Shown piece after piece: positions 43,830-44,270 of a stretch of 64,000 bases of DNA. The position numbers were made by a program, and so were the translations under genes. The DNA is taken from assembly GCF_016903815.1 (NCBI RefSeq), contig NZ_CP069973.1; one strand, written 5' to 3'. Origin of the DNA: Escherichia coli. GTDB lineage: Bacteria; Pseudomonadota; Gammaproteobacteria; Enterobacterales; Enterobacteriaceae. How positions within the stretch are numbered: the stretch's first letter is position 1; each line of letters opens with the position of its first letter. The notes under the pieces were generated by a model. That model did no database searches. It saw only the letters and a program-made list of their open reading frames with translations, and was not told the origin of the DNA.

Positions 43830-44270
43830 ATGGCACCAGAAACGATCGATCACTCAACCTTACATAAACTGGTTGAATCTGGCGTAGTGGATGCAGCACA
43901 CGTTATTGGCACCCAGGGAGGCTGGTCGTTGACCGTGAAATACGGCCACACTGAACGGCCTCTTGCAGCACAACGCAGTCGGCAAATCCGCCTGTTCAAA
44001 CGGCTGGAAACGGTTGTCAACTACCTGAAAGATGTTGGTATTGCCCGGTTTGAAGTCGACGCCTCTAATTACGACCCGGACGGTCAGAAGAAAACGACCC
44101 GACCAGACAGGGCTGAGGCATTAAAACGAGCTCATGAAGCTGCCGCGTATGATGCCTGGTTTCGAGAGCAGGTGCAGGCCGCCATTGACGATCCACGCCC
44201 GGCACTCTCTCATGAAGAGGCCAAAAGTCTATTTGCTGCCCGTAAAAAAGCCTTGCTGAAGGGGGATTAA
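43830..44270 (+). CDS. putative antitoxin with PaaA2/ParD-like C-terminal region and uncharacterised N-terminal domain (146 aa)
   Basis: AGAGG RBS upstream; C-terminal AWFREQVQAAIDDPRPALSHEEAKSLFAARKKALL resembles ParE-neutralising antitoxins (PaaA2-like, from memory); stop overlaps downstream start (TAATG). Confidence 0.7.
   Translation: MAPETIDHSTLHKLVESGVVDAAHVIGTQGGWSLTVKYGHTERPLAAQRSRQIRLFKRLETVVNYLKDVGIARFEVDASNYDPDGQKKTTRPDRAEALKRAHEAAAYDAWFREQVQAAIDDPRPALSHEEAKSLFAARKKALLKGD

Follow-up and report, generated by a model that had tools for sequence, protein, structure and literature searches.

PaaA2 is the textbook exception to the observation that antitoxin DNA-binding domains come from few folds, since it has none. 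It belongs to the paaR2-paaA2-parE2 system of the Escherichia coli O157:H7 prophage CP-933P, in which a short antitoxin gene precedes and overlaps the toxin gene. PaaA2 has no DNA-binding ability of its own, and the paaA2-parE2 operon depends for its control on PaaR2, a CI-like helix-turn-helix (HTH) protein embedded in prophage immunity (PMC8630535). A different logic is followed by ParD2 of Vibrio cholerae and CopA_SO of Shewanella, which combine an ordered N-terminal DNA-binding domain of the ribbon-helix-helix (RHH) type with a ParE-binding tail; PMC8706911 describes for the ParD/CopA type a disordered or helical C-terminal tail and a promoter operator with inverted repeats. A further point of reference is the ParC family (NCBIfam NF041544), whose members have their own gene in par operons, as in the IncP-6 plasmid pCOL-1, where the order is parA-parG-parC-repA and parC is third and last of parA-parG-parC. 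The only description of ParC is that of an auxiliary partition protein (PMC4785139), and the parC gene of pRA2 is reported not to be required for stability (PMC3235114), so that the family name carries no mechanism.

The module analysed here lies in a 64,000-nucleotide stretch of an E. coli chromosome (contig NZ_CP069973.1), referred to below as the window. It has in common with PaaA2-ParE2 a PaaA2-family tail, a ParE2-like toxin, the order of antitoxin followed by toxin and the gene overlap. Whereas PaaA2 is short and lacks a DNA-binding domain, the window antitoxin carries an extra 80-residue ParC-like domain, and in place of a separate regulator such as PaaR2 the module has no third gene and its own palindromic operator. 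The arrangement proposed below follows the logic of ParD2 and CopA_SO, but the window antitoxin has neither the signature nor the fold of their RHH domains. With respect to the ParC family and to Pfam family PF28031, its N-terminal domain (N-domain) is a full-length remote homologue, found outside any par operon and fused to a toxin-neutralising tail, unlike ParC with its own operon gene. In the literature searched (PF28031, ParC-like plus antitoxin, PaaA2 fusions, RefSeq accessions) no publication on this two-domain architecture was found, nor any paper treating the ParC-like family as an antitoxin domain.

The cassette and its gene pair

The gene order in this part of the window is cecR, rhlE (42309-43673), the toxin-antitoxin (TA) gene pair, dinG and ybiB. 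In an alignment with K-12 the sequences agree as far as the rhlE terminator hairpin and once more from 44623 onward, in the dinG leader, and between these points a cassette of about 0.9 kb (Table 1) stands in place of the K-12 ybiA segment of the rhlE-dinG interval. Its left boundary is marked by a perfect 9-bp hairpin (ATGCCGGGC/GCCCGGCAT, 43680-43700) just past the rhlE stop codon, presumably the rhlE terminator and present in the same form in K-12. The full cassette occurs in 324 of 5,426 complete E. coli genomes (about 6%), and its substitution for ybiA is a presence/absence marker within the species. In the window dinG (44722-46873) is broken into two overlapping open reading frames (ORFs), 44722-45813 and 45728-46873, by a frameshift near 45802, where a 1-bp insertion gives GGG for the GG of an intact dinG from a strain with the same cassette; either dinG is a pseudogene here or the split reflects an error in sequencing.

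Table 1. Features of the two-gene cassette, in window coordinates.
Feature	Position	Strand	Basis
Whole cassette: promoter, antitoxin, toxin and 3' flank	43702..44622	+	alignment with K-12
Two further direct GCAATT half-sites	43725-43730, 43740-43745	+	inverted-repeat search and motif count
-35-like hexamer CTGCAA	43759-43764		inferred promoter assignment
Putative operator O1, perfect 19-bp palindrome GCAATT-TATTATT-AATTGC	43761..43779	.	inverted-repeat search; conserved in homologues
-10-like hexamer TATCTT	43782-43787		inferred promoter assignment
Right arm of larger inverted repeat, TTAATTATAAATTGCA	43787..43802	.	pairs with 43760-43775
Shine-Dalgarno (SD) sequence AAGAGG	43814..43819	+	sequence; 10 nt before ATG
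ParC-like alpha/beta domain, antitoxin residues 1-80	43830..44069	+	AlphaFold2 (AF2), PF28031 on homologues, hhalign, dN/dS
Flexible linker, antitoxin residues 81-91	44070..44102	+	pLDDT falls to 69-76; length and sequence vary in alignment
PaaA2-like toxin-neutralising tail, residues 92-146 and stop	44103..44270	+	PF21217, match to PDB PaaA2, AF2 helices
ParE-family toxin gene, 93 aa	44270..44551	+	PF05016, E 1.3e-13; TIGR02385 above cut-off

The antitoxin ORF (43830-44270, plus strand) starts with ATG and encodes 146 residues. RefSeq names genes of equal length either 'hypothetical protein' or 'antitoxin PaaA2 family protein', and the latter call in another strain has coordinates identical to those of the ORF. 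Purine-rich SD-like motifs occupy the equivalent position in most homologous loci, where the start codon is conserved as well. As originally proposed, only the last part of the protein, residues ~92-146, resembles an antitoxin: it matches the Pfam PaaA2 family (PF21217, 'Stability determinant') over residues 104-130 (E 4.2e-10) and the PaaA2 chains of PDB entries 3zbe and 5cw7 over residues 83-139 (E 2e-4), and AlphaFold predicts two helices for it (residues 92-120 and 128-144). A NCBIfam model of RelB-type antitoxins also aligns (residues 102-131) and falls slightly short, at 47 bits, of its cut-off of 50, while a PADLOC search gave no match. By sequence the antitoxin belongs to the PaaA2 family, and a cognate ParE-family gene follows immediately 3', its start codon overlapping the antitoxin stop (TAATG). 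Among solved structures the only sequence relatives of this ParE/RelE-family toxin are ParE2 chains of E. coli O157, whose partner is PaaA2, the closest in the PDB sequence search being 5cw7_B (E 1.7e-6). With a PaaA2-like tail and a toxin nearest to ParE2, the pair is thus of the PaaA2/ParE2 type.

The architecture extends far beyond E. coli. The two-domain protein has 900 full-length matches in a protein collection clustered at 90% identity, and plasmids bearing homologues are found in Klebsiella, Yersinia, Salmonella, Serratia, Rhizobium and Martelella. When one genome per species was scanned, relatives turned up in 167 genomes; of the loci, 80 were kept, 79 of them with a recognisable antitoxin ORF, and in 75 of these 79, drawn from alpha-, beta- and gamma-proteobacteria, a ParE-like ORF lies directly 3' of the two-domain gene. 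The four exceptions are two loci that reach a contig end and two from Pseudomonas (L039, Pseudomonas sp. FEN, and L045, P. viridiflava), which retain an intact two-domain antitoxin gene and operator with no downstream ParE-like ORF, and whose antitoxins are possible orphans. One further protein (P0131, 171 aa) resembles an in-frame antitoxin-ParE fusion, or else a frameshifted assembly. In five annotated plasmid contexts the pair occurs by itself with no attached regulator gene, and no ORF with regulator features was seen either there or in the rhlE-antitoxin interval of the window. A split version with three genes (a ParC-like gene, a short PaaA2 gene and ParE) was likewise not seen. Judged from these sequence relationships, the pair is very probably a true ParE module whose antitoxin has two domains.

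A folded ParC-like domain precedes the tail

In the AlphaFold model of the full-length antitoxin, pLDDT lies at 95-98 over residues 10-80, and a model of the domain alone reaches a pLDDT of 93.4 and a pTM of 0.82. The predicted elements (helices 8-17 and 59-69, strands 22-29, 31-38, 41-46, 52-55 and 75-77) form a helix, a three-stranded meander, a short strand, a second helix and a last strand (alpha-beta3-beta-alpha-beta). A conserved basic segment, Q48-R58 (QRSRQIRLFKR), spans the loop between beta3 and beta4, beta4 itself and the beginning of helix 2. Compared with a 77%-identical homologue on a Klebsiella plasmid, a pair for which dS is saturated, residues 1-80 have a dN/dS of 0.06 and the remainder of the protein one of 0.09. 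The domain is found in 416 clusters at 50% identity.

The original prediction had described this segment as a domain of unknown type. It is in fact already catalogued, as Pfam PF28031 ('ParC-like'), by the precomputed annotation of a 99%-identical cluster representative (P0001) and of nearly all homologues, although residues 1-90 gave no Pfam-A match even at E<=10 in a local copy from which PF28031 was missing. The relationship to ParC is independently supported by profile comparison. NF041544 aligns with residues 6-83 at E 3.5e-8 over 77 of its 80 positions, scoring 33 bits against a cut-off of 95, a threshold that a bona fide Xanthomonas ParC passes with 99.7 bits, and a profile built from 86 homologous domains aligns end to end with this bona fide ParC in hhalign (Prob 97%, E 8.5e-11). 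The domain is accordingly ParC-like by family membership, as annotated on its homologues, and is no ParC equivalog: its score lies below the cut-off of the model, and its gene stands between rhlE and a ParE gene rather than third in a parA-parB/G-parC operon.

The absence of an HTH or RHH signature, noted from the letters alone, is borne out by the Pfam-A search, the AF2 model and the fold comparison. None of the 86 homologous domains matches an HTH, RHH, AbrB or Phd family of Pfam-A, and the confidently predicted alpha/beta fold matches none of the known antitoxin DNA-binding folds (RHH, HTH, AbrB/SpoVT, Phd/YefM). Its structural neighbours are ribosomal protein eL38 and the periplasmic N-domain of FtsH. 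Sequence searches of solved structures, with the single sequence and with the 86-sequence profile, gave nothing relevant; a fold search of AFDB50 returned solely members of the domain's own uncharacterised family; and PHROGs yielded only weak matches to families of unknown function.

It had also been suggested that the extra domain might be a fused regulator, making this a two-gene version of the three-component paaR-paaA-parE systems. The first part of this idea did not survive, since the domain is not a PaaR: neither the query nor any of its 86 homologues has an HTH match in Pfam, and the predicted alpha-beta3-beta-alpha-beta fold is ParC-like. The second part stood, in that the module has two genes of the PaaA2/ParE2 type and no third gene was seen. 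The features that define the three-component systems, a separate upstream HTH gene and an antitoxin devoid of a DNA-binding domain, are not found here, and the module is a self-contained two-gene counterpart of paaR-paaA-parE. Any equivalence of its N-domain to PaaR2 would be functional and not by descent, given that one is ParC-like and the other a CI-like HTH protein.

A conserved palindrome over the core promoter

The GCAATT arms of the putative operator O1 (Table 1) are part of a denser pattern. Besides the two direct half-sites upstream, an inverted copy at 43796-43801 falls inside the right arm of a larger inverted repeat (16-nt arms, 94% complementary, 11 nt apart) that is also present in Klebsiella, Erwinia and Pantoea loci. 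Five of the 49 copies of GCAATT in the window lie within 77 bp (43725-43801), against an expectation of about 0.05 from background density.

Conservation of the palindrome was assessed in the 130 nt upstream of each homologue start codon, in a set of 84 distinct sequences and with an iteratively refined weight matrix. An element of 6-N7-6 geometry (GCAAnn-N7-nnTTGC) was found in 66 of these 84 regions, scoring in each case above the maximum of 1,680 shuffles and situated mostly at -58 to -71 relative to the start codon, in non-coding DNA that cannot be aligned between distant loci. Its left arm is usually TTGCAA, which is -35-like, and of 55 distinct sites, 35 have a -10-like hexamer that begins 1 nt past the right arm, so that the element covers the -35 hexamer and the spacer. 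Complementarity between the arms extends to 227 of 300 cells, compared with a shuffle mean of 204 (sd 5, maximum 221). At the outermost pair (1/19), 42 distinct sites have G/C and 7 have C/G, a single site being the exception; pair 6/14 alternates between T/A and C/G, and in one clade the arms change symmetrically. A separate operator class has CC..GG arms (for example CCCGTTT-N7-AAACGGG and CCAAAT-N7-ATTTGG), and because its left arm is no longer -35-like, it is the two-fold symmetry and not the promoter hexamer that is conserved. Two-fold symmetry maintained in this way is, on sequence grounds, the signature that a dimeric binding protein would leave. The locus also has what is characteristic of autoregulated type II TA systems, a palindrome in the module's own promoter.

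ParC-like genes in other cassettes

ParC-like domains also occur away from PaaA2-type tails. On the Xanthomonas plasmids pXAC64 (L008, 1805-2856) and pXCP1 (L009, 2989-4094) a protein of about 150 residues consists of a ParC-like N-domain and an unrelated basic tail, and its gene overlaps by 4 nt that of a metallopeptidase of the M48 family (about 200 aa, Pfam E 5e-6). A palindrome of 7-N6-7 geometry, ATCAAAC-N6-GTTTGAT, lies just upstream. This arrangement, which is found on many Xanthomonas plasmids, has the appearance of a TA-like cassette, as yet uncharacterised, whose effector is a peptidase. On a metagenome contig (L011, 332-1317) a stand-alone gene for an 83-aa ParC-like protein overlaps the gene of a Gp49/HigB-like toxin, and an HTH_37 (HigA-like) gene comes next, in what may be a three-gene arrangement; GCAAAT-N7-TATTGC lies 46 nt upstream. 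At another locus (L104, 322-1061) the gene of a 129-aa ParC-like protein overlaps a gene downstream whose product matches nothing in Pfam or NCBIfam and may be another partner, and at one locus a stand-alone ParC-like gene precedes that of a replication initiator. In Aeromonas salmonicida plasmid pY47-2 (L007, 2998-4047) a stand-alone ParC-like gene (89 aa) precedes a RelB/DinJ-ParE pair by 258 bp, a layout shared by about 50 comparable small, mobilisable plasmids (6-8 kb) of Aeromonas; this is not a clear case of a split antitoxin, since the antitoxin there is of the RHH RelB type and lies 258 bp downstream. By analogy, the contexts with a peptidase, a HigB-like toxin and a replication initiator suggest that the ParC-like domain fills the slot usually taken in such cassettes by a small autoregulator.

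Which protein reads the operator

Given the conserved palindrome over the core promoter, the N-domain is best read as a DNA-binding regulatory domain, one of the two functions foreseen in the original prediction, and we assign a probability of about 0.6 to its being the operator-binding part of the antitoxin. The C-terminal two-helix tail (residues ~92-146) would wrap and neutralise ParE, by homology with PaaA2 and ParE2, while the ParC-like domain (residues 1-80) would dimerise and bind the 19-bp GCAATT-N7-AATTGC element over its own promoter. Occupancy of the operator would then allow the module to repress its own genes with no separate PaaR-type regulator. The basic segment Q48-R58 may, more tentatively, be the element that contacts DNA. 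The predicted fold of the domain is not a recognised DNA-binding fold.

Because the element and the two-gene cassette travel together across three proteobacterial classes, a binder encoded by the cassette is the simplest assumption. Within the cassette the choice falls on the ParC-like domain, as it is the only extra folded part and PaaA2 itself has no DNA-binding motif. Comparison of the GC and CC operator classes points to the same region: six alignment columns separate the two perfectly, five of them in the N-domain (48, 50, 51 and 52, which fall in the basic segment, and 73), and the separating columns cluster at 48-52 and 73-75, although all CC-class loci belong to one clade, which confounds the correlation. 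Elements of the 19-bp geometry also stand upstream of stand-alone ParC-like genes that have no PaaA2 tail, namely GCAAAT-N7-TATTGC in L011, GCAAGA-N7-TTTTGC in the Aeromonas locus L007 and TCAAAG-N7-ATTTGA, twice, in L098, although this support is soft, since chance alone should give about one symmetric match of four nucleotides per two sequences. The class-separating columns, the stand-alone elements and the slot occupied in other cassettes all favour DNA binding by the N-domain, and each is weaker evidence than the operator itself. Near the bona fide parC of the IncP-6 plasmid pCOL-1 no comparable palindrome was seen.

The same observations can be read with a ParC-like domain that binds no DNA and instead serves oligomerisation, stabilisation or degradation tagging of the disordered tail, the palindrome being bound by a host factor or by the TA complex through other surfaces. 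The fold, nearer to eL38 and the FtsH N-domain than to any DNA-binding antitoxin fold, is in keeping with this view, as is the formation of large oligomers by PaaA2-ParE2 announced in the title of Sterckx 2016. A host factor, however, is hard to reconcile with an operator that accompanies the cassette in alpha-, beta- and gamma-proteobacteria alike; regulation by PaaA2 and ParE2 requires PaaR2 (PMC8630535); and elements of equal geometry precede stand-alone ParC-like genes. This explanation consequently appears unlikely, if by no means negligible. Less probable again is that the domain retains a ParC-type role in plasmid maintenance, for example through contacts with ParA/ParG or with replication proteins. 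Such a role would tie the TA module to partition on plasmids and make the domain a passenger in the chromosomal E. coli copy. Its remote ParC homology (NF041544, hhalign), the place of bona fide ParC in parA-parG-parC-repA, the many plasmid-borne homologues and the stand-alone ParC-like genes that adjoin a ParA operon or precede a replication initiator would all suit such a role. Yet contigs of more than 100 kb carry most of the 80 genome loci, the pairing with ParE is near-universal, purifying selection is strong, the ParC model's cut-off is missed widely (33 vs 95 bits), and parC of pRA2 is itself reported to be dispensable (PMC3235114).

There is, lastly, the start codon to consider, since a conventional short antitoxin translated from an internal codon would reduce the first 90 codons to untranslated sequence or a gene remnant. 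Known ParE partners are usually shorter than 146 residues, and PaaA2 in PDB 3zbe is a chain of 71 residues. The antitoxin, however, contains no internal methionine, and in-frame GTG or TTG codons occur only at positions 20, 34, 36, 115 and 142; with no ATG, GTG or TTG between codons 36 and 115, no complete short antitoxin can arise from an internal start. The low N-terminal dN/dS (0.06), the confident fold, the conserved start codon and SD sequence and the hundreds of full-length homologues further oppose a mis-called start. The finding singled out beforehand as fatal to the prediction, an internal start giving a short antitoxin, was therefore looked for and did not materialise, and so far as sequence can decide such an origin is ruled out, leaving this explanation with hardly any weight.

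Implications

In this protein a tail of the PaaA2 type is coupled to a different domain not yet characterised, and a conserved operator goes with it, so that the ParC-like domain is a candidate for a new operator-binding fold, with a defined site and defined candidate contact residues. In its widest form the proposal is that ParC-like domains, with their eL38-like fold, constitute a class of sequence-specific DNA-binding domain that has so far escaped recognition, a swappable autorepressor head in antitoxins and other small cassettes of mobile elements, with ParE, HigB-like, M48 or replication-initiator partners, that reads a 6-N7-6 palindrome over the core promoter; for this generalisation we consider the odds to be about even. 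If it holds, it would show what form a PaaA2 antitoxin takes when it has a DNA-binding domain of its own, a point still open for paaR2-paaA2-parE2, and would supply a first function for the orphan 'partition-associated' ParC family. The window antitoxin is also a natural comparison for PaaA2 itself, which may have lost a DNA-binding domain or never have had one (a question raised in PMC8630535). ParC-like proteins are widespread on resistance plasmids and on plasmids of plant pathogens, and the antitoxin offers a route to their function.
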